Positions 23,342 to 59,287 of a stretch of 64,000 nt of DNA are shown piece after piece. Origin of the DNA: a virus (lineage: Duplodnaviria; Heunggongvirae; Uroviricota; Caudoviricetes); IMG/VR virus record IMGVR_UViG_3300031993_000024, positions 1 through 64,000 of that record; one strand, written 5' to 3'. The number at the start of each line of letters is the position of its first letter. Position 1 is the first letter of the stretch. The translations under genes were made by a program, and so were the position numbers. The notes under the pieces are model-generated. The model saw nothing but the letters and a program-made list of their open reading frames with translations, was not told the origin of the DNA and ran no database searches.

Positions 23342-23721
23342 TGGGATTAAGGGATTTCAACATATTGCCTCCTAATTATTTGGTGACTGAAGATAATTCA
23401 GCTGTTGAGATTAACTCCGAAATCGCGGAGTTAATCCAACAGATGAATGTTCTGTTTTTTACAAATAGAGGTGAATTGCTGAATATGCCTGATTACGGAT
23501 GCAATCTGAGCGACTACCTGTTTAAGACAAATTATAATGAAGATATGGTCGAGGCTGACATCAACGACCAGATGAAACGTTTTGTAAATACGACTGAAAA
23601 TGTCACATACGAACTGTCGGTAAAATTTCTGACATGGGAAAAAGAAGTGTGTATGGAAGTGGATGTCGACATCAAAAACCTGAAAACTAATGAAGGTACG
23701 GTGATGAGGTATTACGCATAA
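23341..23721 (+). CDS. gp25-like baseplate wedge protein (GPW/gp25 family)
   Basis: EIAELIQQMNVLFFTNRGELLNMPDYGCNLSDYLFK aligns to T4 gp25 SIKNSLLGIITTRKGSRPFDPEFGCDLSDQLFE. Confidence 0.8.
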   Translation: MGLRDFNILPPNYLVTEDNSAVEINSEIAELIQQMNVLFFTNRGELLNMPDYGCNLSDYLFKTNYNEDMVEADINDQMKRFVNTTENVTYELSVKFLTWEKEVCMEVDVDIKNLKTNEGTVMRYYA

Positions 23722-23774
23722 TTTTTTAGGAATTTTCAAAAAAAATAAATATATAAGAAAAACTTATAATAACA

Positions 23775-27536: not shown

Positions 27537-27560
27537 TCTAACACAGTTAGAAACAACCAA

Positions 27561-27595
27561 GAAGGTCTTCCGTAAAAAGAAGACCTTCTTTTTTA
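27561..27595 (+). terminator. strong rho-independent terminator after the MCP gene
   Basis: GAAGGTCTTC-cgtaaaaa-GAAGACCTTC followed by TTTTTT. Confidence 0.75.
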
Positions 27596-27614
27596 TTGTG
27601 GTTTCTTGTAAAAT

Positions 27615-27629
27615 GTTGTTTTTTATATA
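27615..27629 (+). promoter_or_regulatory. GTTGTTTTTTATATA motif (copy 2)
   Basis: Exact 15-nt motif; the ATG at 27664 lies 35 nt downstream. Confidence 0.35.
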
Positions 27630-27663
27630 CAAACAAGTACAAACAACTAAAAACAAAACAAAA

Positions 27664-28149
27664 ATGGAAACAAGTATTTTTAAGACAGGCAGAACATTTG
27701 AGTATTCAATTGTTGAATTGAATGGAAATCCAAAGGAAATAGAAAACGTATTGGGTATACGTATTGGTGAGACTGGTTCCCTTCCTTTAATAGAGGCATT
27801 ATTGGAAGGACCTATTTATGCTATTCTGCAGACAGAAAAATGGGTGAATGTCTTCGGTAAGGAACAACAGAAAAAGACAATATTCGGAATAGATGTCTGG
27901 GATGCTTTAAAATGTCCACCATTTATAAGATGGGATATATGTAACCATCCTGTTATAGAAGGCTGTTGCGATACGATTGCATACGGACATTCAGGCGATG
28001 ACTTTGGATATGGAGGATTTATGAATGTTGTCGCATATACCAAAAAAGAAGGTGCTGAGAAAATGCTTCAATGGATAAAGCAAGTTGATGAAAGACAAGA
28101 GAAGCTTACAAATTTATATAATACTGGAATGACTATCAATGCAATATAG
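27664..28149 (+). CDS. hypothetical protein (N-terminus METSIFKTGRTFEY)
   Basis: The track ORF 27460..28149 overlaps the MCP gene 3' end. The ATG at 27664 follows the terminator and promoter motif and is the likely true start. Confidence 0.6.
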   Translation: METSIFKTGRTFEYSIVELNGNPKEIENVLGIRIGETGSLPLIEALLEGPIYAILQTEKWVNVFGKEQQKKTIFGIDVWDALKCPPFIRWDICNHPVIEGCCDTIAYGHSGDDFGYGGFMNVVAYTKKEGAEKMLQWIKQVDERQEKLTNLYNTGMTINAI

Positions 28150-28199
28150 AATGTTGCTTTTATTACAAACAAGTACAAACAAATAAAAACAAAACAAAA

Positions 28200-28418
28200 A
28201 TGGTAACAAGAATTTTTAAGACGGATAGAGCATGTATTTCTAAGTCTAACAAAAAAAGTATTTTTGTGGGTGGAGTTGGATTTATAATCTGTGTATTAAG
28301 TATTTTTATTACATTTGCAGTTATAGCTTTTATAACTATTGGAAATGCGCAAAATTGTAGTAATCAATGTAAGAATATACAATGCAAGCATGCTGAGATG
28401 GTAAACTGTAATCAATAG
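28200..28418 (+). CDS. small membrane protein (N-terminus MVTRIFKTDR, paralogous to the 27664 N-terminus)
   Basis: 72-aa ORF. Its upstream 60 nt duplicate those at 27607-27665. A transmembrane segment FIICVLSIFITFAVIAFITI is present. Confidence 0.45.
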   Translation: MVTRIFKTDRACISKSNKKSIFVGGVGFIICVLSIFITFAVIAFITIGNAQNCSNQCKNIQCKHAEMVNCNQ

Positions 28419-28445
28419 AGTCTACACAGTTAGAAATAACCAAAG

Positions 28446-28476
28446 AAGGTCTTCCGTAAAAAGAAGACCTTTTATG
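28446..28476 (+). terminator. second copy of the GAAGGTCTTC hairpin terminator
   Basis: AGAAGGTCTTCcgtaaaaaGAAGACCTTTTA; a near-duplicate of the 27537-27600 module. Confidence 0.5.
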
Positions 28477-28491
28477 GATTTCTGGTAAAAC

Positions 28492-28506
28492 GTTGTTTTT
28501 TATATA
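28492..28506 (+). promoter_or_regulatory. GTTGTTTTTTATATA motif (copy 3)
   Basis: Exact motif 18 nt upstream of the ATG at 28524. Confidence 0.35.
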
Positions 28507-28523
28507 AAAACAAAATTGCAGTT

Positions 28524-28826
28524 ATGGCAGCAGCATTAACATTTGCTATCATTTTAGTCACAATCGTACTTTTGCTGACTGACAGAGTCTTTAAAAGAAA
28601 TGTGGCTATCAATTTATCAATTGAAACCGCTAAATCAGTAACTACTGAAGATGACATCAAAGCTCTCGAAGCTACATTTTCAGACTTGAAGAGGTATGCT
28701 TATAGCGATGAAGAGTATGACACTGCGGTCAAAATGCTCTATGATGTCGCAAACAAAAGCATAAAGAGAGCAGAACTTCAGAAACTGAAAGACATTTATT
28801 TTTCCAATTTGATGAGAAAATACTAA
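28524..28826 (+). CDS. small membrane protein
   Basis: 100-aa ORF with an N-terminal transmembrane helix, AAALTFAIILVTIVLLL. Confidence 0.5.
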   Translation: MAAALTFAIILVTIVLLLTDRVFKRNVAINLSIETAKSVTTEDDIKALEATFSDLKRYAYSDEEYDTAVKMLYDVANKSIKRAELQKLKDIYFSNLMRKY

Positions 28827-31743: not shown

Positions 31744-31757
31744 ATTGATTAGATAAA

Positions 31758-32726
31758 ATGAAATACAGGTCAAAGATTCTCATTAAGGATAAACAGAGGA
31801 AACAGGTAATACCAGCAAACAATAAGTTTGCAGTTGTGGCACGGAAAGGTAATACTGACAAGACAATGCCTATTAGGAAGTCAGCATTGCCGACAAACAT
31901 AGTTGACCCTAAACCTGAAGCAGTTCCTGTACTTGATGAAAGACAGGAATTTATCCAATGGTGTAAAGGCAAATATGACCTAAAGAATCCCAAGACGATA
32001 CAAGATAAGCTACAATGGCTTAAGCTTAACGATTTGTCGGAACTGAAAACGAGATGTGCCGATAAGATTCTTTTGCACGAATACTGTAAAGAAAAATTGG
32101 GAAAGGATATATGTATACCGATTCTGAAGGTATTTGACGGTAAGAACATTGATTTAGAAGGCCTTCCGAAGAGCTTCGTTCTGAAATGCAACCATGGCAG
32201 CGGAATGAACATTATAGTAAAGGATGAATCCAAACTTGACTATACAGAAGCCGTAAATAAATTATCGTCATGGCTTGATTCAGATTTTGCAGTCAAGAAC
32301 CATTATGAATGGCATTATCACGATATAGTCAGGAAAGCTTACGCCGAAAAGTATATGTTTGACTCGAAGCAGAAGGAATCGTTATATGATTACAAATTTT
32401 GGTGCTTTAACGGCGAGCCTAAACTGTACACGATAAATGCGGGACACGGGCATGGAGACATATTGTATTTCGATATGGATGACAACGTATGTAATTTTTA
32501 CGGGATACAGTATGACTTGAAGGATTTTGCAAAGCCGAAAAGTTTCGAGAAGATGAAAGAGATAGCAAAGATTCTTTCAAGTGACTTCAAATTTGTACGT
32601 GTCGACCTTTATGAGATTAAGGGTAAAATTTATTTAGGCGAGCTTACTTTCGCTCCAGGTTCTGGAATGTTTAGATATAAGAATAAGGAAGACGAAATAA
32701 TGGTAGGAGATATGTTGAAACTTTAA
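31758..32726 (+). CDS. ATP-grasp amidoligase-like protein (TupA-like ATP-grasp) with a shared 45-aa N-terminal module
   Basis: FVLKCNHGSGMNIIVKD...KFWCFNGEPKLYT...RVDLYEIKGKIYLGELTFAPGSG fits the TupA-like ATP-grasp family. Its N-terminus MKYRSKILIK...NNKFAVVARKGNTDKTMPIRKSALPTNI is paralogous to that of 33435. Confidence 0.6.
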   Translation: MKYRSKILIKDKQRKQVIPANNKFAVVARKGNTDKTMPIRKSALPTNIVDPKPEAVPVLDERQEFIQWCKGKYDLKNPKTIQDKLQWLKLNDLSELKTRCADKILLHEYCKEKLGKDICIPILKVFDGKNIDLEGLPKSFVLKCNHGSGMNIIVKDESKLDYTEAVNKLSSWLDSDFAVKNHYEWHYHDIVRKAYAEKYMFDSKQKESLYDYKFWCFNGEPKLYTINAGHGHGDILYFDMDDNVCNFYGIQYDLKDFAKPKSFEKMKEIAKILSSDFKFVRVDLYEIKGKIYLGELTFAPGSGMFRYKNKEDEIMVGDMLKL

Positions 32727-33383: not shown

Positions 33384-33434
33384 ATATAAAGATATACACA
33401 ATAATTGTTAATTCATTAAATACCAAGATTTTAA

Positions 33435-35183
33435 ATGAAATACAGGGCAAAGATACTTATTAAGAAAAGTCCGCAGAAACCGGTGATGCCAGTAAATAAA
33501 AAGTTTGCTGTTGTATCACAAAAAGGTAATTCTGGTAAGGCGATGCCTATCAGAAAATCATTACTGCCGATAAACATACGTAATCCAAAACTTGATTGGA
33601 ATAATGATGAGATTACACCAAAAATTATAGAGGCTTTTGAAAATCTTGAAATCTGGAAATATAAAAAGCCTAAGAAGAAATATCCTTACGCCAAGAAGAA
33701 AATCCATCTCATTCATTGGTGGTTTAAAGACAGGTCAAACCTTGTATTAAGCGATTTAGAGAAATTTCATTTTTCAATGTTGTGGCTTGCGGACTTCGAT
33801 AATAAGTTTGACGAGATACATTTCAATGTCGCGCTTGATAACGATACCAAGGAGGCAAGAGACTTTATAACAAAATCAATCAAAGAGCTTACCAAGAACG
33901 GGAAAGCCGATGTTAAAATAGAATTCAGAAAGAATAGCAAGAATACAGGTGAATTTGAAACCTGGGTAAAAATGCTGGACTTCGTTAGCAAGGCTGACAG
34001 CATAATTTTCTATTCTCATTTCAAAGGAGCTAAGTATAATGACGCCTCTAAGATACTCGACATAAAATACTGGTGTTACTTGATGTACCAAGGCTGTCTG
34101 ATGGACGGATGGGATTCTGCTCTTAAGACCCTTGAAGATAATTATTCCTATGGAGCGATAAGTTCATGCGCAAAGAGCGGACCGTTTAAGAAAGATGTCG
34201 ATATGATAAGGAACAGCTTGGAGGCTGACGGCATCAAAAATGACGGAATACATTATACAGGCACGTTCTATTTTTGGAATGGTGAGATGTGCAAGAAATA
34301 TTTTGCAAAGAATAATATCAAGCTGACTAAAAATAAATTGCTTGGTATAAAAGGAATAAGAATGAATTTCTTAAGCGAGACACTTTCTTCTAATTTGACG
34401 GGGAATGCGAGGACTTACTTCGGTGACAGGTCTGACGCCGGTATTACCAATATGTATAAAATGTATACCTACAACAAGTACGGCAAATACATAGAAAAGT
34501 TCAGGAATCTTTATAAGGATAATAACAGGAGCAAAAATATCTGTTACACCGTCATAATAAACGGGTATGACGACCTGAAGAATCCGCAGGTTATTTCACC
34601 GGCATGCAGGTATATCTGTTTTTCTGATGACAATCTGAAAAGCTATGTCTGGGAAATACATAAAATACCTGACGAGCTTAAGACGGTTGATGCTAAGAAA
34701 CAGTCAAGGATAATAAAGGTAATGCCTCAGAAGTATTTGCCTGAACACGAGTGGTCTATGTATATCGACGGCAACATAACCATCAATACCGACCCAGTCA
34801 AGTTCATATCGGATGTGTGTGATAACAACATATTCAGTATACCGCTTCATTTCAAGAGGACTTGTCTATATGATGAAGGCGATGTTGTAACAAGTTTCAG
34901 TATTGATAGTAAAGACGTCGTAAGCGCTCAAATGAAGAGATACCGCGATGAAGGATTTCCTCAAAATTACGGCTTGAATGAGAATAATCTTTTAGTTCGT
35001 AAGAATGACAAAGCTGTCAATAAAGTAAATGAAATGTGGGCGAACGAGATTCTTAAAGGTTCTTACAGGGACCAGCTGTCGCTGAGATATTGCTTATGGA
35101 AGCTTGATTTCGAGATAAACAACCTTCCAGCGACGATAGTCCGACAATCGAAGTATTTTACGTATAACCAGCATAAGAAATAA
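33435..35183 (+). CDS. multidomain protein: shared N-terminal module plus a putative glycosyltransferase-like C-terminal domain
   Basis: N-terminus MKYRAKILIK...NKKFAVVSQKGNSGKAMPIRKSLLPINI is paralogous to 31758. C-terminal ICYTVIINGYDDLKNP...ICFSDDNLK resembles GT-A (DUF616-type) proteins. Confidence 0.65.
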   Translation: MKYRAKILIKKSPQKPVMPVNKKFAVVSQKGNSGKAMPIRKSLLPINIRNPKLDWNNDEITPKIIEAFENLEIWKYKKPKKKYPYAKKKIHLIHWWFKDRSNLVLSDLEKFHFSMLWLADFDNKFDEIHFNVALDNDTKEARDFITKSIKELTKNGKADVKIEFRKNSKNTGEFETWVKMLDFVSKADSIIFYSHFKGAKYNDASKILDIKYWCYLMYQGCLMDGWDSALKTLEDNYSYGAISSCAKSGPFKKDVDMIRNSLEADGIKNDGIHYTGTFYFWNGEMCKKYFAKNNIKLTKNKLLGIKGIRMNFLSETLSSNLTGNARTYFGDRSDAGITNMYKMYTYNKYGKYIEKFRNLYKDNNRSKNICYTVIINGYDDLKNPQVISPACRYICFSDDNLKSYVWEIHKIPDELKTVDAKKQSRIIKVMPQKYLPEHEWSMYIDGNITINTDPVKFISDVCDNNIFSIPLHFKRTCLYDEGDVVTSFSIDSKDVVSAQMKRYRDEGFPQNYGLNENNLLVRKNDKAVNKVNEMWANEILKGSYRDQLSLRYCLWKLDFEINNLPATIVRQSKYFTYNQHKK

Positions 35184-36208: not shown

Positions 36209-36235
36209 ACTGATAAAACTATAAATTGTAGATAT

Positions 36236-36249
36236 TGTTTTTTATATAA
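36236..36249 (+). promoter_or_regulatory. TTGTTTTTTATATA motif (copy 4), part of a 50-bp cassette shared with 37225-37274
   Basis: GTAGATATTGTTTTTTATATAAAAGCTTAAAAGATATGGAAAAATTAAAG; near-identical at 37225. Confidence 0.4.
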
Positions 36250-36262
36250 AAGCTTAAAAGAT

Positions 36263-37111
36263 ATGGAAAAATTAAAGACATTCAAAAGCTTCATCAAAGA
36301 AAGTATTGATTTGAATGCTTTCAGAAAAAATAATGGAAAGTACTATCCTGAAGATAGAGATGAATTGAAATTGCTTATGGAAGCTCTTATAGAGGAGAGA
36401 GGTTTTGAAGGTGACTTTAATGATATTGACACATCAAGGATTACTGATATGAGCCATTTATTTGCATTTGCCAGAAGTTTTAATGGTGATATATCACAAT
36501 GGGATACAAGTAATGTGACGAACATGCGAAGAATGTTCAGTAGTGCAGAAAAGTTCAATCAATCTATTGAAAACTGGGAGGTTTCAAATGTAAAAGATAT
36601 GGGAATGATGTTTATGTCTGCAAAAAGTTTCAATCAACCTATTGGAAACTGGAATGTATCAAATGTAGAGGATATGGGAAGTATGTTTAGTGCTGCAGAA
36701 AAGTTCAACCAATCTATTGAAAACTGGGATGTCTCAAATGTCAAAATTATGAGAAGTATGTTTAGTGCTGCAAAAAGCTTCAATCAGCCAATTGGAAACT
36801 GGAATATTTCAAATGCCTATTATATGCCTTTTATGTTCCATAGAGCAGAGAAGTTCAATCAACCAATTGAAAACTGGGATGTCTCAAATGTAAAAAATAT
36901 GAGAAGCATGTTTAGTTTTGCAAAATGTTTTAATCAGCCAATTGGAAACTGGGATGTTTCAAATGTAGAAGATATGGAAGCTATGTTTCATTATACTGAA
37001 TCTTTCAACCAAGATATTTCAAATTGGAATGTTTCGAAAGAAGTAATATGCAGGGATATGTTCGTTAATTGTCCAATCAAGCAGGAATATAAACCTGATA
37101 TAAAACAATAA
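36263..37111 (+). CDS. CTS-like leader (MEKLKTFKSFIKES) plus DUF285/BspA-like repeat protein
   Basis: Leader, then ~9 repeats of FNQxIxNWxVSNVxxMxxMF, matching the DUF285 mycoplasma-type repeat. Confidence 0.8.
   Translation: MEKLKTFKSFIKESIDLNAFRKNNGKYYPEDRDELKLLMEALIEERGFEGDFNDIDTSRITDMSHLFAFARSFNGDISQWDTSNVTNMRRMFSSAEKFNQSIENWEVSNVKDMGMMFMSAKSFNQPIGNWNVSNVEDMGSMFSAAEKFNQSIENWDVSNVKIMRSMFSAAKSFNQPIGNWNISNAYYMPFMFHRAEKFNQPIENWDVSNVKNMRSMFSFAKCFNQPIGNWDVSNVEDMEAMFHYTESFNQDISNWNVSKEVICRDMFVNCPIKQEYKPDIKQ
36470..37060 (+). repeat. in-frame ~75-78-nt tandem repeats encoding DUF285-type repeats
   Basis: FNQSIENWEVSNVKDMGMMFMSAKS, then FNQPIGNWNVSNVEDMGSMFSAAEK, and so on. Confidence 0.75.
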
Positions 37112-37232
37112 AGTAAGACAATATGAAAAGAGAACGTCAGAGTGAAATTCTTTGACACTTTCTTTTTATCGAGTAGCTTCGCATAGAATCTGAATATAAA
37201 TAACCGGGAAAACCATAAATAGATTGTGGATA

Positions 37233-37245
37233 TTGTTTTTATATA
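37233..37245 (+). promoter_or_regulatory. TTGTTTTTATATA motif (copy 5; T5 variant)
   Basis: Part of the duplicated 50-bp cassette. Confidence 0.4.
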
Positions 37246-37259
37246 AAAGCTTAAAAGAT

Positions 37260-37802
37260 ATGGAAAAATTAAAGTCTTATAAACAGTTAATTGCAGAATC
37301 AGATGATGCCGGAAGATTCTTGAAAGCTGATACAAGTGTAATAAGCGATTCCATTTATGAGTCTTTCTTTGAAAAGCCATTTCAAGGGGAAGAAAGAACG
37401 CTTGAAGATTTGTATGCTGTATCTAAGACATCCGACAAGTATAAAGGTCTTAGATTAAAAGAAATATCCAAGATTGAAACTGATATACAAATAATTCAGG
37501 CTATAGATAAATGGGTTGAGAAGAAAAACGTTCGTGATTATACTTTCCTGAAGAGAATTGGGCAAGGTTCGATGATAAACACGAAACTATATTCATCTAA
37601 AAATACGCATTGGGGCGGCATGGCGACAGTCGACCTTATGAATGGTATCGCGAAACATGTCATTTACGATTACTCCGAGACCATAGAAGGAGAAGCAATC
37701 GAAGGCTTCATGAAGATAGAGTATAATGATGATATGCTTGCGATATACCAGCAGTATGACAACCATACTGTAGGCAAGTATCATATCTATGTAAAACTGT
37801 AG
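37260..37802 (+). CDS. hypothetical protein with CTS-like leader MEKLKSYKQLIAES
   Basis: The track ORF 37224 starts at a non-ATG codon. The ATG at 37260 sits inside the conserved cassette. Confidence 0.7.
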   Translation: MEKLKSYKQLIAESDDAGRFLKADTSVISDSIYESFFEKPFQGEERTLEDLYAVSKTSDKYKGLRLKEISKIETDIQIIQAIDKWVEKKNVRDYTFLKRIGQGSMINTKLYSSKNTHWGGMATVDLMNGIAKHVIYDYSETIEGEAIEGFMKIEYNDDMLAIYQQYDNHTVGKYHIYVKL

Positions 37803-37807
37803 GCGAC

Positions 37808-38278
37808 ATGAGTAAGGGATTGCTGACATATAGCAAGTTCTTAAAAGAGTCCGTAAGTCTTGACGACTTGACGAACCTCATCATTGAATGGGAACCTAAA
37901 TGGAAGGTATCTGTTGAGGAATATGATGAGAAGATGCGTAAGCTGAATAATACTGAATACTTGTTTGACCTTTCAAAATATACAGTAGACACAGATAAGG
38001 CTCGTTTAATTATTTGGATAGGTTCAAGAAAATCTGATGGCGTTATAGTCATAGACGCAAGGGCAAGGCTTAAAGATGAAAGCTTTTATAGTTCTGAACT
38101 GCCTGGTTCGAGGACGAATGCCGAAAGAGAGGTCATGAAAAAAATGATGAATGACAATACCTTACTTACAGCGATAACCGAATTTATTAACAAAAAGTAT
38201 CATACGAGGATTGCTGCTCTTGCCGTTAAGAACCGTATAACGATGTCAAACTGGCTTGGTGCCGAAACTGAAATATAA
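37808..38278 (+). CDS. hypothetical protein with a degenerate CTS-like leader MSKGLLTYSKFLKES
   Basis: 156-aa ORF. Confidence 0.65.
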   Translation: MSKGLLTYSKFLKESVSLDDLTNLIIEWEPKWKVSVEEYDEKMRKLNNTEYLFDLSKYTVDTDKARLIIWIGSRKSDGVIVIDARARLKDESFYSSELPGSRTNAEREVMKKMMNDNTLLTAITEFINKKYHTRIAALAVKNRITMSNWLGAETEI

Positions 38279-38279: not shown

Positions 38280-38753
38280 ATGGAAAAATTAAAGACTTTC
38301 AAAAGTTTTATCAATGAAGCTATTTCTGGCTGGGATAACGAAATCAATGATTATGTTGTCAAAAAAGATAGTAGAAAACGCGAACGAGGATATATATTCG
38401 TACCGAATGGTGAAGAATTATACAAGCGCGAATTTAGAGCACCTCAAATAGCTTGGGGTTTCGAAGACTACCACGTATCTTCTTGGGATAAAGTCAGACT
38501 GAGAAAAGAAGGTTACAGCGACGAACAGATTGAGCTTATAGATAAATATCTCGGTCTATGGACTTCATATCGAAGCACTTATGCTGTCGTAAGTAAGACA
38601 TCGTTAAGACAATCTGAGAAACTGACAGGAATCGCTACTCCAGACAAAGATGTCTATGTAACATACGAGGTAGGTGCTGTCGGAATATATCAGAAACGTT
38701 ACTATGACTTAGAAAAATTTGCGACCTTTGTAAAGAATCATTGTAAAAAATAA
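38280..38753 (+). CDS. hypothetical protein with CTS-like leader MEKLKTFKSFINEA
   Basis: The track ORF starts at TTG 38256, overlapping the previous gene. The ATG at 38280 begins the conserved leader. Confidence 0.65.
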   Translation: MEKLKTFKSFINEAISGWDNEINDYVVKKDSRKRERGYIFVPNGEELYKREFRAPQIAWGFEDYHVSSWDKVRLRKEGYSDEQIELIDKYLGLWTSYRSTYAVVSKTSLRQSEKLTGIATPDKDVYVTYEVGAVGIYQKRYYDLEKFATFVKNHCKK

Positions 38754-38798: not shown

Positions 38799-40706
38799 AT
38801 GGAACACTTAAAGACATTCAAACAATTTTATGAATCAAGGGAAGAGGACCTTGAACTGTACAATAAGGCGAAAGACGCATACTATAATGGCAACCCCATT
38901 ATGGGCGACGCTGAATTTGATGAACTCGAAAGAAAGCTTGGTCTTGAAAATCAGGGCTATATAGGTACACATCATTCTGATAATTATACCGTAAAACATC
39001 CGATAAAAATGGGAAGCCTTTCGAAAATACAGATAAAAGAAGGTTCAGACGGTCAAACCCATTTTGACTCATATATCGATACCCTTAACAAGTATTTCCA
39101 AAATGTTCCGGACGATGGAATCATTGAGGTAACTCCAAAATTCGATGGATGTTCTTTTGAGGTTGTGTTCGATGACGAAGGAAATGTTGAAGGAATATCG
39201 ACAAGAGGCGATGGTGAATACGGTACGGATGTAAGCCACTGGCTGAGTCCTTATGTAGACGAAATACCTTACAAGGAATTCCTGCAGAAAGGCAAGAAGC
39301 TCGTGGTAAGGGGAGAAGCTCTTATAAGCTTTAATGACTTTAACGCAGGCTATCAGGATAAATTCGCGAATACAAGGGCGTTTGTTGCTGGCATGTTCGG
39401 TCAGAAATGGGACGGAAAACAGGAACAGCTTGATATAAGGAAAGATTTGTCAATAGTTGTGTATGACTTCAGGCTTGTATCTCCGTCAGGCTCATATCAA
39501 TGGGTTGACTATAATACGGTTCCTGGCTATGACGTATGCGCATACAATGTGCTTACCTTTAAGAAATCAGAACTCAGTCCTATGGAATTCGCGAGGATTT
39601 ACGAAGAAATGGAGAAAGTTCGTAAGGATTACAAATTCCCTCTTGACGGTTTCGTGTTGAAACCAGAAGTGAAATACCGCAAGACGGAAGATGTTCAGCG
39701 TCCGAGCGACTGCGTCGCAATCAAATACAAACCAAGTATCCTCGAGACAGAAATCACGGAGATAGAATGGAATGTTGGAAAGACAGGAGAACTTTTCCCG
39801 AAGGCTGTGTTCAAGACAATAAAGATGGACGGAAAGAACATCAACAAGGCGTCATTGCATAACTACGGATATGTTAAGGACAATAACGTCGGAGTTGGTT
39901 CCATCATTAAGATTTCGCTTGCCGGCGATATAATTCCTTTCGTGTATGAAATCGTAAGAGACGGAGGCGACAATATGGCTCCTACCGAGAATGTGACCGT
40001 TAAAGGACCTCATCTTATGATTGACTTGTCTGCTGAAGAAAAAGTTGTCATAAAGGTAATAGCAGGCGCTGAGGCGATAAACATCAGAAATTTCAAAGAG
40101 GCGACGATACGTAAGATTATGCCTGAGTTCTTTACAAGCGAGGATGTAAAAATCGAGAATGTCCTTGACTTTATGAAAGATGAATCAATCGCTTTTATGA
40201 AGGAACGTTTCGGAACAGGGACATCGATAATGAATATCGTAAACGCTCTTACTGAAAGACGTAAGACTTTGACGCTTAATGAAATCATACTTGCCCTGCA
40301 GTTCCGTCTGTGCGGTAAGGTCGCTGCCGATGTCTGTGCCAAGTTTATCAAGGGCGACAAGTCAAATCATCTCATAGGCGTGCCTGGTGAAGTCAAGAGA
40401 TGGCTTCTTGATGAGAATTCTCAGGAATACCAGACTATTATGGGGTATGCGAATTTGTTCAAAGTTAATATGGCTCCGGAAGCGGCCGCTGCGTCGACGG
40501 CGATACCTGTGATTATGACAGGAAGTCCGAAAGAATTCGGATATGTTACCAAGGCAGCTTTCCTTGCCGCACATCCTGAATATATAGAGACATCTGACTG
40601 GAAGCAATGTAAAATCCTGTTTACGGACGATATGTCTTCGACATCCGGAAAAATGAAGAAAGCTGCCGCTCTTGGAGTTGAGGTGAAAACATACGGGGAA
40701 GCATAA
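38799..40706 (+). CDS. ligA: NAD-dependent DNA ligase (LigA-like domains Ia, NTase, OB, HhH, BRCT) preceded by CTS-like leader MEHLKTFKQFYES
   Basis: YYNGNPIMGDAEFDEL fits domain Ia. KMGSLSKI fits LigA PMLSLDNAF. TPKFDGCSF is the KxDG motif; STRGDGEYGTDVS fits ATRGDGTTGEDIT; FANTRAFVAGMFGQ fits motif IV NPRNAAAGSLRQ. LAGDIIPFVYEIV marks the OB end. HhH-like and BRCT-like regions (AIPVIMTGS...LGVEV) are present. Confidence 0.85.
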   Translation: MEHLKTFKQFYESREEDLELYNKAKDAYYNGNPIMGDAEFDELERKLGLENQGYIGTHHSDNYTVKHPIKMGSLSKIQIKEGSDGQTHFDSYIDTLNKYFQNVPDDGIIEVTPKFDGCSFEVVFDDEGNVEGISTRGDGEYGTDVSHWLSPYVDEIPYKEFLQKGKKLVVRGEALISFNDFNAGYQDKFANTRAFVAGMFGQKWDGKQEQLDIRKDLSIVVYDFRLVSPSGSYQWVDYNTVPGYDVCAYNVLTFKKSELSPMEFARIYEEMEKVRKDYKFPLDGFVLKPEVKYRKTEDVQRPSDCVAIKYKPSILETEITEIEWNVGKTGELFPKAVFKTIKMDGKNINKASLHNYGYVKDNNVGVGSIIKISLAGDIIPFVYEIVRDGGDNMAPTENVTVKGPHLMIDLSAEEKVVIKVIAGAEAINIRNFKEATIRKIMPEFFTSEDVKIENVLDFMKDESIAFMKERFGTGTSIMNIVNALTERRKTLTLNEIILALQFRLCGKVAADVCAKFIKGDKSNHLIGVPGEVKRWLLDENSQEYQTIMGYANLFKVNMAPEAAAASTAIPVIMTGSPKEFGYVTKAAFLAAHPEYIETSDWKQCKILFTDDMSSTSGKMKKAAALGVEVKTYGEA

Positions 40707-40724: not shown

Positions 40725-41420
40725 ATGAAAAAATTAAAGACATATAATCAGTTCCTTAAAGAAGGAAAAGGCATACGTAAAGAATATGACAGCAGCCTTG
40801 AAAATATGATGGATGAATACGGAAGTGATTCCTATGGTTCTGTCATAACAAAAGAGGTCGAGGAACTGCAGACAATGCTGAAGGACAAAAATCTTTTGGA
40901 GCCTGTCGATAAAGTTGTGTCTGTAATGTTATACCCTGAACAAGATTGGCATCCGATATATGCGATGATACGTCTTGAAAACGGCTTGCAGTACGTAACG
41001 ACAATTATAAATGTAGCCGATAAAAGCAAACTAAGACTGATGTCTGACGAGATGTATAAGATATTGCTTGAATGGCTTCAGAATGTCATAGATGAAGACA
41101 AGAAGAAAAAATCAAGTATGAAGTCAATGCCTGAAATCAAGGATTTGCTGCCTGAATATCTGAATATCGTCAGTAGATTTGTTGAAATGTTTAATATAGG
41201 CAGAGCCAAGTATGAAGCTAAGATATATAAGACAGACTCGATTCTTATTACATATAACGGAAGATATAATGGGGTTCTCATATTCTCCAAAACTGAGTAT
41301 GCCTATAATATCGAAGTACATGCTGTTACTGGCGGATTTTATGATACTGATTATTTGTATGATGAATCCAGCAAAGTTATTAAAGATGCCGTTAATTACA
41401 TTTTAAAACAACAACTATGA
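40725..41420 (+). CDS. hypothetical protein with CTS-like leader MKKLKTYNQFLKEG
   Basis: 231-aa ORF. Confidence 0.7.
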   Translation: MKKLKTYNQFLKEGKGIRKEYDSSLENMMDEYGSDSYGSVITKEVEELQTMLKDKNLLEPVDKVVSVMLYPEQDWHPIYAMIRLENGLQYVTTIINVADKSKLRLMSDEMYKILLEWLQNVIDEDKKKKSSMKSMPEIKDLLPEYLNIVSRFVEMFNIGRAKYEAKIYKTDSILITYNGRYNGVLIFSKTEYAYNIEVHAVTGGFYDTDYLYDESSKVIKDAVNYILKQQL

Positions 41421-42136
41421 TTATGAAAATAAATGACAGAAATATGAAAGATATTCTCGGCGAGCTTAGTAAGGTCGTATCTGATGCGATAGGTCTTGAG
41501 AATATCGTTGGTTACTATACGAAGAAAACATACAGCTTCAAGTCAGATGTCCTGACGATTACTTTGTCTTATCACGAAGACCCTCAACGGGAATATTATG
41601 ATTTGAAGCAAATCAAGTCTGACGCGTATAATGCCGCTCAGAGTATATTTGGAGTATTTGCTCTGCAAGATTATAAAGAGCAAGCTGATGTTACGAAAGA
41701 TGAGATGTACGTCAATATCATCTTCAAGTTTACTGTCGACGAACTTGAAAAGGTGAAAGTCGTATATGACAGGCTTTTTACCGAGGGTAGCTCAAAGCTA
41801 CTTACTTACAGCCAGTTTATCAATGAGAGTTCTAAGAATGGTGTAGAGCTTGGTAACTATGAATTCGCGTATAGATGCGATGAAGAGGAGAATGCCGACG
41901 AGCTTATGGAAATAACTCATTATGACGAATTTGCGAATAATGACTACAGCATACAGGATGATTATTTCGGTTCTACAGTTAAAATCGTCAATACCGATGA
42001 GATGCTTCCACATTTATTCGGCAACAAGCCTGAAGAGTCAGAGATAGAATACTGTGCTTTGAATACCGTTTTGAACATAGCATTCATACTTGATAAATCT
42101 GGCTATCATTGGATTTATGAACTACTCACAAACTAA
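41417..42136 (+). CDS. hypothetical protein (no leader); its 3' end overlaps the tnpB stop by 15 nt
   Basis: 239-aa ORF; the last codons may be IS-derived. Confidence 0.55.
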   Translation: MIMKINDRNMKDILGELSKVVSDAIGLENIVGYYTKKTYSFKSDVLTITLSYHEDPQREYYDLKQIKSDAYNAAQSIFGVFALQDYKEQADVTKDEMYVNIIFKFTVDELEKVKVVYDRLFTEGSSKLLTYSQFINESSKNGVELGNYEFAYRCDEEENADELMEITHYDEFANNDYSIQDDYFGSTVKIVNTDEMLPHLFGNKPEESEIEYCALNTVLNIAFILDKSGYHWIYELLTN

Positions 42137-43318
42137 AGATTTGTGGGCTTCAGGCTTCGCAGACAATTGCTTGCAAGCAAGTCTTACATCGTCTCCACCT
42201 GTGTAATCGACAGTCCCTGCCGATAGAGTTGTTAATCCTTCTCTAAGGATATTGATAGCAGCATTTAAGTCCCTATTGTGGTGTTTACCACATTTAGGAC
42301 AAGTCCATTCTCGTACACACAAGTCTTTGATAGATTGATTGATATATCCACAGTCACTACAAGTCTGTGAGCTTGGAAAATATCTGTTAATCTTCACTAA
42401 AGTCTTGTCTTCCCTTTCACACTTGTATTCAAGATAGTTTACGAATGTTCCCCAACTGACATCAGCAATATGCTTTGCAAGTTTATGGTTCTTAATCATT
42501 CCTTTTACGTTAAGGTTCTCACAACAGATTATGTCATAGTTTCTGACAAGTTCTGTTGATACCTTGTGTAATACATCATTTCTTGAATTTGAAATTTTCT
42601 TATGAATCTTGACAACTTTTCTTCTTTGGTTTTCAAAAGAACGGCTGTCTTTTTGCTTACGAGAAAGATGCCTCTGTGCTTTACTTAATTTTCTTTCATA
42701 TTTCTTTGTATATCTATGATTTTTGTAAACTTTTCCATCTGACGTAATAACAAAGTCTTTTAATCCTAAATCAATTCCGACAGATTTATTAGATTTTTGT
42801 ATTGGTTCATATAACTGTTCTGTAAGAATAGCAACATAATATTTTCCATCGCAATCTTTAGATACTGTCATAGAACGTACATTCCCTGATATTTCTTGAT
42901 GTTTCTTTATTTTTATATTAGACTTGAATTTTGGTAATGATATAGAATTGCCAACAACAGAACAAAATTGTGGCACTACAAAAGAGTTTCTGTCTTTCCT
43001 TGATTTGAATCTTGGAAACTTCGCATTTCCTCTAAAGAAGTTAAGATATGCAGATTCAAGATGTCTCAAACTATGTTGTAAGGTTTGACTGTTAATCTCA
43101 TTTAACCAGACAAATTCTTCATGCTTCTTTAATAGAGTTAGTTTCTTAGCTTGGTCATAGTAATTATCAGACTTTTGTGTAGCTTTATATTGCTCCATAC
43201 GTTCGTTGAGAAAATAATTATAGACGAAGCGAGTGCATCCAAAATACTTACCTAACAACTCTACTTGTTCCGTATTTGGATACATTCTAAACTTATATGT
43301 CTTATAAATCGTTTTCAC
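42122..43318 (-). CDS. tnpB: TnpB (IS605 OrfB-family RNA-guided nuclease)
   Basis: HTH-like N-terminus, RuvC-I SVGIDLGLKDFV, zinc finger CSDCG...CPKCG, and RuvC-III NRDLNAAINIL. 398 aa. Confidence 0.95.
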   Translation of the reverse strand: MKTIYKTYKFRMYPNTEQVELLGKYFGCTRFVYNYFLNERMEQYKATQKSDNYYDQAKKLTLLKKHEEFVWLNEINSQTLQHSLRHLESAYLNFFRGNAKFPRFKSRKDRNSFVVPQFCSVVGNSISLPKFKSNIKIKKHQEISGNVRSMTVSKDCDGKYYVAILTEQLYEPIQKSNKSVGIDLGLKDFVITSDGKVYKNHRYTKKYERKLSKAQRHLSRKQKDSRSFENQRRKVVKIHKKISNSRNDVLHKVSTELVRNYDIICCENLNVKGMIKNHKLAKHIADVSWGTFVNYLEYKCEREDKTLVKINRYFPSSQTCSDCGYINQSIKDLCVREWTCPKCGKHHNRDLNAAINILREGLTTLSAGTVDYTGGDDVRLACKQLSAKPEAHKSLVCE

Positions 43319-43469: not shown

Positions 43470-43726
43470 TACAGACCGGATATAGTCGTAAAACAATTGT
43501 TTCAAAAATTTTACAAACTTCTGATTTCGATATTGATGTTATGGAGATAGACAAAGGCAATATACATCTTCTTATATCATATCCACCAAATATTTCAGTC
43601 ACTTCGATTGTAAGAAAACTCAAACAAGATAGTGTCCATTATCTGTGTTTGAATTATTACAACTTTCTTAAAAAAGAATTTTGGAAAGAACATACATTTT
43701 GGAGTGATGGATACTTTGTTCTATAG
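43470..43726 (+). pseudogene. tnpA: TnpA (IS200 Y1 transposase) remnant lacking its N-terminal ~60 aa
   Basis: FDIDVMEIDKGNIHLLISYPPNISVTSIVRKLKQDSVHYL...FWSDGYFV matches the TnpA C-terminal half. The HUH motif is degenerate (NIH); the catalytic Tyr is present. The frame opens only at 43448. Confidence 0.7.
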
Positions 43727-43768: not shown

Positions 43769-43911
43769 TGGGAAAAAGAAGTGTGTATGGAAGTAGATGT
43801 CGACATAAAAAATCTGAAAACTAATGAAGGTACGGTAATGAGGTATTACGCATAATTTTTTTAGGAATTTTCAAAAAAAATAAATATATAAGAAAAACTT
43901 ATAATAACAAA
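43769..43911 (+). repeat. 142-bp direct repeat of 23634-23775 (gp25-like 3' end plus downstream promoter region), ~96% identical
   Basis: Within the 84-nt coding part there are 4 differences, all synonymous third positions. In the non-coding part there is a single 1-nt indel. The copy's reading frame is closed 3 codons upstream. Confidence 0.85.
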
Positions 43912-43985
43912 GGTTAGTACGATTCATTCCAAAGGCTAAAGACCTTAGGATTTTCTTGCTAAAAATTATATAAAACTGATTACTT

Positions 43986-44702
43986 ATGGGAAAGTTAATG
44001 ACATATAAGCAGTTCATGGAGAATAAAACCATGAAACAAGTTAACGAAGGAGCAGGTGCAGGATATACCATAGAAGGCATTATACGAAATATCAATCTTG
44101 GAGAAAATGCGAAATTCAAGAAAGTAAATGATGATACTTTCATTATAAATGGTGACATCACCTGCAATGTCGAAGTCACTAAGGCTGCATCTTACGAATA
44201 TGGCGGAGATGATAAGATATTTAACGAATATAATGCTGCCGCCAAAATTTCGAATCTGGAAATCCAGGTATATGATATGGACAAGGGCAGTAAAGAAGAG
44301 ATAAAAGAAGACCTTAAACAGGCTGAGTTCAAATTCAAATGCCTTTACGGTGCAGGTTGGGTACATAGCAAGTTTGGAGGCGACTTAAAACTTAGCGATG
44401 TCGATACTAACGACTGGTCTAATTCGCAAATCATAAACGGCGAACTGCAGATAGAAGATGAGAAGCTTTGTAATTTTGTCGATAGAGTGGTACGTGGTGA
44501 TAATACATACACCGCATATACGATAAGATGTAACGGAGACCTTATTGAACAGGAATTCAAGACTGAGAAAGAAGCAATCGAATATGCTAAGAAGAACCTT
44601 GAACCTGGAGAGAATATCTGTAAGATACTTATGGATACCGATTATGAGGACATAGAAGGTGAAATAATCAGCAGAGATTCTAATATAGTGTACGAATTCT
44701 AA
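43986..44702 (+). CDS. hypothetical protein with CTS-like leader MGKLMTYKQFMENK
   Basis: 238-aa ORF preceded by ATTATATAAAA. Confidence 0.7.
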   Translation: MGKLMTYKQFMENKTMKQVNEGAGAGYTIEGIIRNINLGENAKFKKVNDDTFIINGDITCNVEVTKAASYEYGGDDKIFNEYNAAAKISNLEIQVYDMDKGSKEEIKEDLKQAEFKFKCLYGAGWVHSKFGGDLKLSDVDTNDWSNSQIINGELQIEDEKLCNFVDRVVRGDNTYTAYTIRCNGDLIEQEFKTEKEAIEYAKKNLEPGENICKILMDTDYEDIEGEIISRDSNIVYEF

Positions 44703-44727
44703 ATTCCATACTGTATATGAACGGAAG

Positions 44728-44760
44728 GCGTCAGGATTAAATTCTTGACGCTTTCTTTTT
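44728..44760 (+). terminator. rho-independent terminator
   Basis: GGCGTCAGG-attaaatt-CTTGACGC followed by TTTCTTTTT. Confidence 0.55.
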
Positions 44761-44765: not shown

Positions 44766-44780
44766 GTTGTTTTTTATATA
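44766..44780 (+). promoter_or_regulatory. GTTGTTTTTTATATA motif (copy 6)
   Basis: Exact motif 21 nt upstream of the ATG at 44801. Confidence 0.4.
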
Positions 44781-44800
44781 AAACTAAAATAGAATATTTA

Positions 44801-45862
44801 ATGAGTAAAGTTTGGATACTTGGAGACACTCATCTTGGATACAAGAATGATGATGAAAGGCATTTACAGAAAATGACGGAATATCTTGAAGCCGTCATAG
44901 ACAAGATTAACAATGAATCTTCTGAAGGAGACATATTTGTCCAGCTTGGCGATTTGCTTGACAGGAGAATGAACGTCGGTACAATCGTGTTGGAAACCGT
45001 CATCAGGCTTTTTAAGAAACTAAAAGTTGACACATATATCATTGTCGGGAATCATGACACCAGGAAAAATGACGAGCACGACATCATATCTACGTCTTTT
45101 CTTGAATACGTCTCACCTAAGATACATATTATAAGAGACATTACGGAAATGAGCATTAGCGGCAAAAAGGCCTTATTCGTGCCGTATTATACTCCAGATG
45201 TCGCGAAAGAGAAACTGCAGAGCTATGAAGGTTCATTCGATTATATGTTTTCACATCTTGATTTCTGCGGTCTGAAAATGAACAAGTATTCAGTATCTGA
45301 CACAAAGCTTATGAAAGAGGATGCGAAAGCTGGTATCATATTCAACGGACATATACACCTTTTCCAAAAGAAAGACAATATAATAAATGTCGGCTCCGCA
45401 TACGAGCTTACCGCTGCGGATGAAGGGAATTCGAAAAACCTTTTGATGCTTGACACTTCGACAAACAAAGTGGCTGCATTCAAAAATAATATGTCGCCGA
45501 GGTTTATAACTGTTCCTTACAACGACATCCAGAACATAAGCAAGTCTGTCCTTGCGAATAACAACATTATTCTTGAGGTCAAATGTTCGGAGATGACTAA
45601 GACCGACCCGCGCCTGATAGCGGAAGTAAACAAAGAAGCTTACAGTATGAGAACTGTCATTACAGGTGGAAAGGTCGTACTCGACAGCGAAAGCGGGAAT
45701 ACAGATACAGATTCCGAAACCATGACCATAGGAAACCAGAATTTTGATGACAAGGTAGACGCTTATATGGCAAACCTTATTGAACAAGACCTGTATTCAA
45801 AACAGGATGTTGAGGTTATAGGCAAGATATTTAAGAAAGTCTATAGCAATGTCGCACATTAG
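44801..45862 (+). CDS. SbcD/Mre11-family recombination nuclease subunit (T4 gp47-like calcineurin-type phosphoesterase)
   Basis: KVWILGDTHLGYK matches gp47 KILNLGDWHLGVK. VQLGDLLDRR...YIIVGNHD matches IQYGDIFDVR...HTIVGNHD. An acidic Ser/Asp-rich region near the C-terminus also matches gp47. Confidence 0.7.
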   Translation: MSKVWILGDTHLGYKNDDERHLQKMTEYLEAVIDKINNESSEGDIFVQLGDLLDRRMNVGTIVLETVIRLFKKLKVDTYIIVGNHDTRKNDEHDIISTSFLEYVSPKIHIIRDITEMSISGKKALFVPYYTPDVAKEKLQSYEGSFDYMFSHLDFCGLKMNKYSVSDTKLMKEDAKAGIIFNGHIHLFQKKDNIINVGSAYELTAADEGNSKNLLMLDTSTNKVAAFKNNMSPRFITVPYNDIQNISKSVLANNNIILEVKCSEMTKTDPRLIAEVNKEAYSMRTVITGGKVVLDSESGNTDTDSETMTIGNQNFDDKVDAYMANLIEQDLYSKQDVEVIGKIFKKVYSNVAH

Positions 45863-46533: not shown

Positions 46534-46621
46534 TTCTCTACTATTTTTATATATTTATAAATGATTGAAAATCAGGGCTTGAGAAAAAAATTTTCAAAAA
46601 AATTGAAAATTTTTAACAGTT

Positions 46622-46655
46622 TTTGTTAAAAATTAAAAATAATGTGTTATATTTG
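46622..46655 (+). promoter_or_regulatory. Bacteroidota sigma-A-type promoter (TTTG-N22-TATATTTG) embedded in the inverted repeat TTTTTAACA/TGTTAAAAA
   Basis: TTTG at 46622-46625 and TATATTTG at 46648-46655. The same architecture recurs at 57594-57627. Confidence 0.45.
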
Positions 46656-46818
46656 TCAAAACAAATTTAATTAAAACTCTTAAAAAATTATCGTTATGGC
46701 AAAGAAAAACAGAAAACCAGAAACATTCGGATGTCCGAAAGAATTTGAAGGCTATCAAAGATTACTTAACGCCTTATTCAAGTAAACCCAAAGTACAACA
46801 ATTCTAAATCTTACTACT

Positions 46819-50412: not shown

Positions 50413-50439
50413 GTTGTTTATTATATTAAAAAACAGAAA

Positions 50440-51579: not shown

Positions 51580-51665
51580 CGTCTGTAACTTATTGATTAT
51601 CAATATCAACTGAAAATAATTTGAAAATTTTTAACAAAAAATGTTAAAAATGAAAAATATCAGCT

Positions 51666-51673
51666 TATATTTG
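51666..51673 (+). promoter_or_regulatory. TATATTTG -7 element within a TTTTTAACA/TGTTAAAAA inverted-repeat promoter region
   Basis: This is the third copy of the conserved early-promoter architecture. Confidence 0.35.
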
Positions 51674-51707
51674 TCAAAACAAAATTGATAAACAAAACTT
51701 AAGCATT

Positions 51708-52577: not shown

Positions 52578-52679
52578 AAGACAATGTCTATACAGTAGTT
52601 GATGAAAGAAGTCACGGCCCTTGGTTTGGACAAGGTCCTGGGACAAGGAACAGAACGACTAAATATTTAAAAACTTGGT
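52541..52679 (+). CDS. small overlapping ORF encoding a conserved C-terminal module (MFRNLEGGTVTLKDNVYTVVDERSHGPWFGQGPGTRNRTTKYLKTW)
   Basis: Not in the track (46 aa). It is frame +2 relative to the end of 51708. The same module ends ORF 53555..53944 and occurs again at 52960-53073. Confidence 0.3.
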
Positions 52680-52880: not shown

Positions 52881-52906
52881 AAACAAATAAAACTATAAAA
52901 TTATGA

Positions 52907-57550: not shown

Positions 57551-57593
57551 TAATCAATACAATTCAAAAAATAATCAAAAATATTTAACATTT

Positions 57594-57627: not shown

Positions 57628-57667
57628 TTGAGTCAAAACAATTCAAAACTTAAACTTAAGTAAAATT

Positions 57668-59247: not shown

Positions 59248-59287
59248 AAAATAAGATTGTGTTAAACTATTAAAATAAAATGTTAAA

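Follow-up and report, generated by a model that had tools for sequence, protein, structure and literature searches.

What kind of element is the 50-bp repeat that stands at the start of two neighbouring phage genes, and why does it run on from an upstream motif into their coding sequences? The repeat lies in a 64,000-nucleotide (nt) stretch of viral DNA (IMG/VR record IMGVR_UViG_3300031993_000024, positions 1 to 64,000), referred to here as the window, which sits on a 238,631-bp metagenomic contig (ENA ERZ27257203 k141_1795869; 83 kb of the 238.6 kb were inspected). The window encodes a Portal_T4 portal protein (8.7e-61), a tail sheath, a gp21-type prohead protease (Peptidase_S77) and a Gp23-family major capsid protein, and it is part of a 238.6-kb T4-like phage genome, a distant relative of T4. 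DNA of this phage occurs in ERZ27257203, ERZ27256849, SRR8543131, SRR9008933 and SRR11060108. In the explanation that we consider probable, the repeat joins a non-late phage promoter, built on a sequence termed motif 1 below, to a T4-type capsid-targeting leader, and recombination between such cassettes would shape a locus that resembles the T4 internal-protein loci and the PeSL cassettes of T4-type phages. Read in this way, the locus adds a distant new case to a design known from T4 and is not a new kind of element.

Copy 1 of the repeat (36228-36277; GTAGATATTGTTTTTTATATAAAAGCTTAAAAGATATGGAAAAATTAAAG) and copy 2 (37226-37274; all features are on the plus strand unless stated) differ by a single A/G mismatch, with G for A in copy 2, and by one missing T (T6 in copy 1, T5 in copy 2), and are otherwise identical. 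A preliminary description of the window had recognised the near-identity but let copy 2 start at 37225, whereas it begins at 37226 and is 49 nt long. Each block consists of GTRGAT (GTAGAT in copy 1), motif 1 (36234-36251 in copy 1), an 11-nt 5′ leader (GCTTAAAAGAT) and then ATG GAA AAA TTA AAG, the first five codons (MEKLK) of the DUF285 gene (36263-37111) in copy 1 and of gene 37260-37802 in copy 2. The match thus spans, as had been described, the motif, the ribosome-binding region and the first five codons, and the idea that the cassette carries a coding leader is borne out by these shared codons; what had been missed is that the five codons merely open a longer leader present in eight genes. 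The DUF285 gene is bracketed by copies 1 and 2 as direct repeats. Past codon 5 both genes still encode the leader, with codons that differ at many synonymous and non-synonymous positions. Because the block stops inside the leader, with differing codons beyond, and because the unconstrained 5′ leader is also identical, the abrupt end of the identity points to a recent patch of exchange or duplication and not to selection alone.

When all sites are aligned, the informative stretch of motif 1 comprises 22 nt, AAAY-GTTGTTTTTTATATAAAA. The 15-mer GTTGTTTTTTATATA, reported earlier at 5193, 27615, 28492, 44766 and 59233, was found at all five positions; with up to two mismatches it gives nine matches, against 0.67 ± 0.83 in shuffled sequences, none of which reached nine. 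Sites at 3610 (minus strand), 10901 and 50413 and a decayed copy at 28153 had been overlooked, and the related sequence ATTATATAAAA before gene 43986 is present, as had been stated, but has only the 3′ half of the motif in common. Two more exact copies lie just outside the window on its right side, at window-equivalent positions 64737 and 72065 of the source contig, which brings the total to 11 copies in the window plus two on the flanks, preceding at least 10 genes. A 22-column weight matrix built from the nine ungapped sites was run over both strands (128 kb): these sites score 24.6-33.5 bits and no other position reaches 12 bits (0.7 in shuffles). Motif 1 sites are therefore either close to perfect or missing, and gene bodies contain none on either strand of the window, the sole coding overlap being the site at 10901, which takes in the stop of the upstream gene and the five codons before it. 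Every site is co-oriented with the next gene, whose ATG is 25-73 nt from the start of the motif. A search over the whole window has thus yielded an intergenic, co-oriented element with no scatter at random or inside genes.

The individual sites are as follows. On the minus strand, motif 1 at 3593-3610 heads an operon that begins with gene 3048-3557, with an ATAAATA between motif and ATG. The copy at 5193-5210 precedes gene 5266-5859, a late-type ATAAATA standing in between at 5244, and the copy at 10901-10918 (one mismatch) overlaps the stop of gene 8622-10916 and precedes gene 10941-11573. Behind the major capsid gene, the copy at 27615-27632 follows a terminator by 24 nt and precedes gene 27664-28149; the decayed copy (GTTGCTTTTATTACAAAC, 28153-28168) precedes gene 28200-28418, within a duplicated segment discussed below (28150-28233), and a perfect copy at 28492-28509 stands after a terminator and before gene 28524-28826. 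Further perfect copies occur at 44766-44783, 9 nt after a terminator and before an SbcD/gp47-like gene (44801-45862), and at 59233-59250, just past the stop codon of RtcB; the copy at 50413-50430, with two mismatches, precedes gene 50440-51579. The site at 59233 is followed by a nine-codon open reading frame (ORF; METSHNWYI*) that has its start in common with gene 27664 and is probably a remnant. Downstream genes are mixed, comprising an SbcD/gp47-like nuclease subunit, membrane proteins, a DnaA-domain-IV-like helix-turn-helix protein (a sub-threshold match), ORFans and leader-bearing genes.

Motif 1 or variants of it also occur in relatives of the phage. Scans with the capsid protein in IMG/VR and the JGI metagenomes returned a single relative lineage, with a capsid protein 78% identical, in which the variants GTTGTTTTTTAATTAAAA and GTTGTTTATTATAATAAA stand right before start codons. 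The exact 18-mer with the same AAAY flank precedes genes in IMG/VR contig 3300031993_000041 (L013/L017), whose DUF285 protein is 50% identical to that of the window. A scan of IMG/VR for the exact 18-mer gave 23 loci, of which three come from a relative (all on one contig) and the rest are single chance matches, some of them in giant-virus bins; among 185,579 species genomes there were single matches in AT-rich genomes only, with no host and no multi-copy genome. The portal protein is 29-37% identical to its nearest counterparts in deposited phages, namely uncultured huge phages, Prevotella Lak phages and Chryseobacterium phages. No GenBank phage matched in a near-identity DNA search with the 30-45 kb part of the window, and motif 1 is absent from the 41 kb scanned in each of two more distant Bacteroidota T4-like phages, LR756500 and Chryseobacterium phage MA9V-1. 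A literature search for the motif sequence found nothing relevant.

The coding half of the cassette can be followed further. A leader of 12-14 residues, M-E-K-L-K-T-[FY]-K-x-F-[IL]-x-E or a near variant, starts eight genes. In order along the plus strand it is encoded at 36263-36301 (MEKLKTFKSFIKE, the DUF285 protein), 37260-37298 (MEKLKSYKQLIAE, gene 37260-37802), 37808-37849 (MSKGLLTYSKFLKE, gene 37808-38278), 38280-38318 (MEKLKTFKSFINE, gene 38280-38753), 38799-38834 (a leader-like extension, MEHLKTFKQFYE, of the NAD-dependent DNA ligase gene 38799-40706), 40725-40763 (MKKLKTYNQFLKE, gene 40725-41420) and, in a looser form, 43986-44021 (MGKLMTYKQFME, gene 43986-44702). The eighth is encoded on the minus strand at 1083-1121 (MEKLKTYKQFIKE) and belongs to gene 360-1121, the last of the minus-strand operon started at 3610. 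The strict core of the leader has eight matches in the six-frame translation, against 0.87 expected. Six of these stand at the start of an ORF and, with the looser leaders at 38799 and 43986, account for the eight genes; of the remaining two, one (33302) contains a stop and is a chance match, and one (41801) is internal to ORF 41417-42136. This internal core (SSKL-LTYSQFINE-SS, 41801-41827) sits around residue 129 of the 239 residues, and suggests an in-frame fusion of the upstream ORF with a former leader-bearing gene.

In the T4 genome record, ipII and ipIII begin with MKTYQEFIAE, and ipI with MKTFKEF. The first ten residues of IPIII suffice for head targeting in T4, residues 4 and 7 serving targeting and residues 8 and 10 processing (PMC9026906). 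Aligned with K-T-Y-Q-E-F-I-A-E of T4, the window leaders (K-T-[YF]-K-x-F-[IL]-x-E) match at all four of the mapped residues and have identical spacing. Run against T4 DNA, the window leader pattern retrieves ipII and ipIII, plus one internal chance match in gp20, while a degenerate DNA scan for MEKLKT[FY]K in IMG/VR gave eight chance matches, none of them with the full leader. The leader is, on this residue match, best read as a T4-type capsid-targeting sequence. A similar start occurs in Chryseobacterium phage MA9V-1, where an 82-residue ORF annotated as hypothetical (21537-21785 of its stretch), between the portal and prohead-protease genes, begins with MKTFTCFINE; by its sequence this ORF carries a T4-like capsid-targeting leader in another Bacteroidota phage.

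An enzyme that could remove such leaders is encoded in the window. The gp21-type prohead protease (23775-25730; Peptidase_S77, 3.8e-12; PHROG head maturation protease, 1e-39) is presumed to cut them after (I/L)-x-E. Its own start, MENKKYIVE-S, has IVE at residue 9, just as T4 gp21 (MNEPQLLIE-T) has LIE there, a site that fits the gp21 cleavage logo (PMC9026906). Its scaffold-like C-terminal half consists of repeats of about 24 residues (..VVTSxDxEKYTxYLSEHL..), between residues ~340 and 650, each with YLSE and ending in a Leu-Ser-Glu site. The protein looks like a protease-scaffold fusion studded with its own predicted cleavage sites.

Beyond the leader, the mature parts of the proteins are unrelated: one is a DUF285 repeat protein (1.5e-97), another an NAD-dependent DNA ligase, and the remainder have no family matches. 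The DUF285 gene itself contains at least eight tandem repeat units of 75 nt (25 residues) at 36458-37038, with 67-81% identity. The leader of the ligase (38799-40706) is an add-on, since LigA family models align only from residue 19-22 onward; the extension, MEHLKTFKQFYES, has an altered Glu spacing, which would mean either that the ligase is packaged or that recombination inside the leader has left a relic. The array of leader genes at 36.2-42.1 kb differs in cargo from that of contig 3300031993_000041, the DUF285 gene alone being common to both.

Duplication is a recurrent feature of motif 1 copies, and conserved pairs of them extend over 50-100 nt. A terminator together with motif 1 is duplicated at ~27537-27640 and 28419-28515, and a duplicate of 84-86 nt (27612-27697 and 28150-28233) comprises motif 1, the 5′ leader and the 11 codons that follow it. 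The strain ERZ27256849, which is 99.4% identical, has the T6 and the A of cassette 1 in its cassette 2, and a 33-nt in-frame insertion starts directly after ATGGAAAAA at the 3′ edge of cassette 2. In contig 3300031993_000041 both cassettes have a common 5′ leader of their own (TTTTTAGTT), unlike that of the window, and one of them precedes a six-codon stump, MEKLMS*. The genes behind the capsid gene differ in the relative with the 78%-identical capsid protein. No clean gene-level swap bounded by two cassettes was seen in the relatives and the strain compared, and the evidence for gene shuffling by cassettes is circumstantial. The design of a cassette plus leader has a direct precedent, because T4 ipII and ipIII have a near-identical promoter, ribosome-binding region and leader.

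Other rearrangements were observed nearby. A duplication of ~155-165 nt with ~93% identity (23633-23790 and 43769-43922) contains the last ~90 nt of a gp25-like gene, a late promoter and the 5′ leader of the protease; in the second copy, which lies upstream of the leader-bearing gene 43986 and adjoins an IS605-type element, the ATG has become AAG. An IS200/IS605-family TnpB (OrfB_IS605, with a Cas12f-like TNB domain) is encoded at 42122-43285 (minus strand), at the end of the leader-gene array, and beside it lies a short ORF (~43541-43726) with a weak match to Y1 transposases. The two 99.4%-identical strains differ at 177 positions, of which 69 are concentrated in 1.5 kb of the tail sheath gene (21000-22500), a local hotspot of variation.

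What, then, does the upstream half of the cassette do? At 27615, 28492 and 44766, motif 1 begins 9-24 nt after the end of a strong terminator-like hairpin; these hairpins lie at 27559-27590 (−20.7 kcal/mol), at 28446-28471 (−22.9 kcal/mol; homologous to the former) and at 44723-44756 (−22.3 kcal/mol; directly upstream of its motif). A weaker one (37136-37156), behind the DUF285 gene and upstream of copy 2, resembles the hairpin at 44723 and one in contig 3300031993_000041, where motif 1 likewise follows a homologous hairpin. Because a terminator 9-24 nt upstream leaves no room for another promoter and the genes would otherwise be silent, motif 1 is itself most likely a promoter, and the best reading, we infer, is a non-late promoter specific to the lineage, which is packaged with a terminator in one cassette. 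No sigma-70 −35/−10 match coincides with any motif 1 site, the spacing from TTG to TATA being only 5-7 nt; no TGCTT box was found at the sites, nor any TAnnTTTG at or after them in the window. Assignment to the sigma-54 type (GG...TTGC) was rejected, as GG is not conserved, the spacing varies and the −12 element is GTTGT, and so was the ECF type with GAAAC as −35 element, for which the spacer to the TATA part is too short. An AAAAC/GTTTT hairpin within motif 1 was likewise discarded, being too weak and having a right arm that is not conserved.

Motif 1 is one of three candidate promoter classes, the others being a host-type TAnnTTTG and a T4-late-type ATAAATA. In a survey of 80 nt upstream of genes, ATAAATA is the top 7-mer among well-represented words (16 of 82 genes, 11-fold enriched), and it ranks first upstream of genes in the closest relative as well. 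A gap of 15-30 nt separates its end from the ATG at the portal gene, genes 8622, 15088, 15502 and 18202, the tail tube, sheath and protease genes, gene 29633 and a baseplate gene, and at the capsid gene it lies farther upstream; about 17 sites of the form (C/T/A)ATAAATA precede structural genes, for example at 6356, 8599, 15063, 15470, 18170, 19229, 20741, 23745 and 29600 and, on the minus strand, 46558 and 3584. By position and sequence ATAAATA matches the T4 late-promoter pattern, kept in this distant T4 relative and in its 78% relative, and it is a far better gp55-type candidate than motif 1. Motif 1 and a late-type element co-occur, in either order, at four genes: 3557 (minus strand), 5266, 36263 and 37260. 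At the cassettes themselves, two ATAAATA (37196-37221) stand just 5′ of copy 2, and copy 1 has TATAAATT at 36220-36227.

Perfect host-type TAnnTTTG elements occur in the window at 4159, 29314, 46648, 51666 and 57620. We take TAnnTTTG to be the −7 element of Bacteroidota primary-sigma promoters (TTTG at −33, with TAnnTTTG at −7, some 19-22 nt farther downstream), and because such perfect elements stand in some intergenic regions the host of the phage is probably a member of the Bacteroidota. Three of these elements belong to a separate 96-nt cassette found before small genes at 46596-46691, 51614-51709 and 57568-57663, with 71-75% identity to a reference copy. Each copy has an inverted repeat TTTTTAACA-N5-TGTTAAAAA (exact in two, with one mismatch in the third), followed by the perfect host-type TATATTTG. 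These cassettes look like operator-controlled early promoters, and are arguably the closest analogue of classic PeSLs in the window.

Against this background, three other readings of motif 1 can be weighed. The preliminary description had likened the motif core to the T4 late −10 element and had pointed to a gp55-like gene at 14594. This link proved the weakest part of its interpretation, because a distinct ATAAATA serves the structural genes, TATATAAA in motif 1 differs from the T4 late TATAAATA at two positions, and the downstream genes are mixed. The 118-residue product of ORF 14594-14950 matches Sigma70_r2 above the Pfam threshold (5.3e-06), but its BLASTP comparison with T4 gp55 is not significant (E = 0.078), and comparison with solved structures gave no informative match. 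It is accordingly a distinctly unlikely proposition that motif 1 is a gp55-type late promoter in which TATATAAAA acts as the late −10 element read by this sigma-like protein. Points in its favour are that the motif has a TATA-rich core, that the structural module encodes a small sigma-70 region-2 protein, and that several motif 1 genes lie in the structural region, two of which encode predicted head-targeted proteins that must be made late; yet the canonical ATAAATA is what serves the portal, sheath, tube, protease and baseplate genes, four genes have both elements separately, motif 1 conserves 22 nt where the T4 late promoter has 8 bp, and motif 1 also stands before the SbcD/gp47-like gene and small accessory genes in an early-type region. 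We hold it to be very unlikely that motif 1 is no promoter at all but a regulator-binding site or an element that acts in the RNA, for instance as a translational operator or nuclease site. Its nearness to start codons, a weak palindrome at some sites (for example GTTGTTTTT...AAAAACAA at 28492) and the sub-threshold helix-turn-helix protein whose own gene is preceded by motif 1 fit that reading, whereas a distance to the ATG that ranges over 25-73 nt gives no consistent overlap with the ribosome-binding region, the right arm of the palindrome is not conserved, and at three sites the strong terminator 9-24 nt upstream would leave the motif untranscribed, and the genes promoterless, unless the motif were itself the promoter. 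That motif 1 serves a phage-encoded RNA polymerase in place of a redirected host enzyme appears highly improbable: a nearly invariant 22-nt motif that is near-perfect or absent does resemble the promoters of single-subunit phage polymerases, and the inspection covered 83 of 238.6 kb, but no RNA polymerase domain was found in the window proteins tested or among the pre-computed Pfam matches of the flanking genes, and the window encodes a sigma-like protein and has T4-type late promoters. T4-like phages rely on the host core RNA polymerase, which also counts against such an enzyme.

A different objection concerns the repeat and not the motif. The 50-bp block could be the residue of an ordinary tandem gene duplication, with promoter and leader kept by selection and no role in shuffling, and this we consider unlikely, though it deserves more weight than the alternatives above. 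A distance of 1 kb separates the two copies, the genes behind them are neighbours within one leader family, the second pair (27612-27697 and 28150-28233) also heads adjacent genes, whose N-termini are similar, and past codon 5 the leaders differ at many synonymous and non-synonymous positions. However, the identity includes the unconstrained 11-nt 5′ leader and breaks off abruptly within the codons of the leader; the proteins encoded behind it are unrelated, DUF285 and NAD-dependent ligase being distinct folds behind the same leader; the cassettes within one genome are more alike than their counterparts in a relative; cassette 2 of the near-identical strain has been converted towards cassette 1; and a six-codon stump follows a cassette in contig 3300031993_000041.

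The explanation that we favour, a non-late promoter cassette joined to a capsid-targeting leader and subject to recombination, has points against it as well. A clear upstream hairpin is found at four of the ~11 sites, the other six or seven having no convincing one, and the 83 kb examined yielded no candidate recognition factor for motif 1. At its closest, the ATG comes 25 nt after the motif start, which would make the 5′ leaders very short if the TATA part acts like a −10 element. The ligase leader departs from the I/L-x-E spacing, and the cargo proteins are large (156-635 residues) and mostly acidic (pI 4.4-5.6), unlike T4 internal proteins. Tandem duplication alone could explain the repeat, and the strain comparison gives a local change at cassette 2, with divergence that is not sharply bounded there.

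The likeness to known systems helps to place the locus. The preliminary description had compared it with the mobile regulatory cassettes of T4-type phages (PeSL/PmSL), and this fits well, the motif being intergenic, co-oriented and often right after a terminator. PeSL and PmSL are multi-copy, conserved intergenic cassettes in which a stem-loop terminator and a promoter are followed by the beginning of the next gene; they lie among small variable genes, often as direct repeats around single genes, and have been proposed as substrates of homologous recombination (Arbiol et al., 2010, PMC2839356; Comeau et al., 2014, PMC4122927). Further marks of PeSL/PmSL are mini-circles produced when flanking cassettes recombine, and copies that coincide with insertions, deletions or replacements between close relatives. 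A model for PeSL excision uses direct repeats that flank a gene (PMC2839356), as copies 1 and 2 flank the DUF285 gene. The window cassettes are likewise multi-copy, conserved and intergenic among small variable genes, with decayed copies and stumps nearby. They differ in that PeSL has a sigma-70 promoter (−35/N17/−10) and PmSL a Mot box with a −10 element, whereas motif 1 is a 22-nt lineage-specific motif, and in that the window cassettes have no Shine-Dalgarno element and a hairpin at some copies only.

The T4 ip loci encode injected proteins that vary, are unrelated to one another and have nothing but an N-terminal packaging leader in common (PMC12373910, PMC4122927, citing Repoila et al., 1994), and the capsid-targeting sequence of T4 is treated in Mullaney and Black (1996), as reviewed in PMC9026906. 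The window resembles these loci in the spacing of the aromatic residue, Phe, Ile/Leu and Glu, in the (I/L)-x-E end and in the clustering of unrelated proteins in a variable locus, and, as at ipII/ipIII, promoter, ribosome-binding region and leader are duplicated together. Unlike that of T4, the window leader has three extra N-terminal residues (MEKL-), and the predicted cargo is larger than the small basic T4 internal proteins and mostly acidic, including a DUF285 leucine-rich-repeat-type protein and an NAD-dependent DNA ligase. Late transcription is T4-like in that (C/T/A)ATAAATA stands 15-30 nt before late-gene ATGs and a small sigma region-2 protein is encoded; with the 8-bp, gp55-dependent T4 late promoter TATAAATA motif 1 shares general AT-richness only, and it precedes mixed genes. 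It also lacks the TAnnTTTG of the Bacteroidota primary-sigma promoter.

On these comparisons a mechanism can be proposed. Motif 1 would be a promoter of a phage-specific, non-late class, read by the host RNA polymerase core after redirection by a phage specificity factor. The terminator hairpin often packaged upstream of it would make a self-contained terminator-promoter cassette, in the layout of the PeSL/PmSL elements found in coliphages and vibriophages of the T4 type. The copies at 36228 and 37226 are fused to the start of the leader, the presumed counterpart of the T4 capsid-targeting sequence, by which unrelated cargo proteins would dock onto the core of the prohead. Cleavage after Glu by the gp21-type protease would then free the cargo from its leader, and the cargo would stay in the head and enter the host with the injected DNA. 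Exchange between copies, by recombination or gene conversion, would keep them alike within a genome, and could delete, insert or N-terminally re-tag genes of the variable array. A bolder version, in which motif 1 belongs to an undescribed specificity system of Bacteroidota T4-like jumbo phages (a sigma-like or activator factor, or a phage polymerase) and forms, together with the leader, an integron-style capture-and-expression site, seems to us quite doubtful, a little more so than simple tandem duplication.

If the leader works as in T4, a head-targeting tag and its protease site would have persisted over the very large evolutionary distance between coliphage T4 and a 238.6-kb phage whose host is probably a member of the Bacteroidota. 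Sequence alone would then suffice to pick out genes with the leader as encoding candidate injected proteins, a class that in T4 disarms host restriction, and the idea of gene shuffling by conserved promoter cassettes would extend to a phage group without described promoters. The three candidate promoter classes should be useful for annotating related gut or rumen phages, and the 22-nt motif offers a defined bait for its recognition factor. Were the integron-style version true, any recombined gene would gain both a promoter and a head-targeting tag, and the phage could package and inject a shifting repertoire of larger enzymes and binding proteins (DNA ligase, leucine-rich-repeat proteins), beyond small anti-restriction proteins.

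Finally, repeated gene starts are also found elsewhere in the window. Two adjacent genes of sugar-modification type (ATPgrasp_TupA and TOD1_MUCI70 matches) have 163-nt 5′ ends that are 76% identical (31756-31918 and 33433-33595); their products start with MKYRSKILIK and MKYRAKILIK, and an epimerase gene comes next. The early-type region contains small paralogous families, at 52901-52964, 62902-62965 and 63623-63686 and at 52567-52617, 52954-53004 and 53785-53835, with common starts such as M-x-EEDYVSFKVA-LLKEKGF, some copies being apparently truncated or out of frame.

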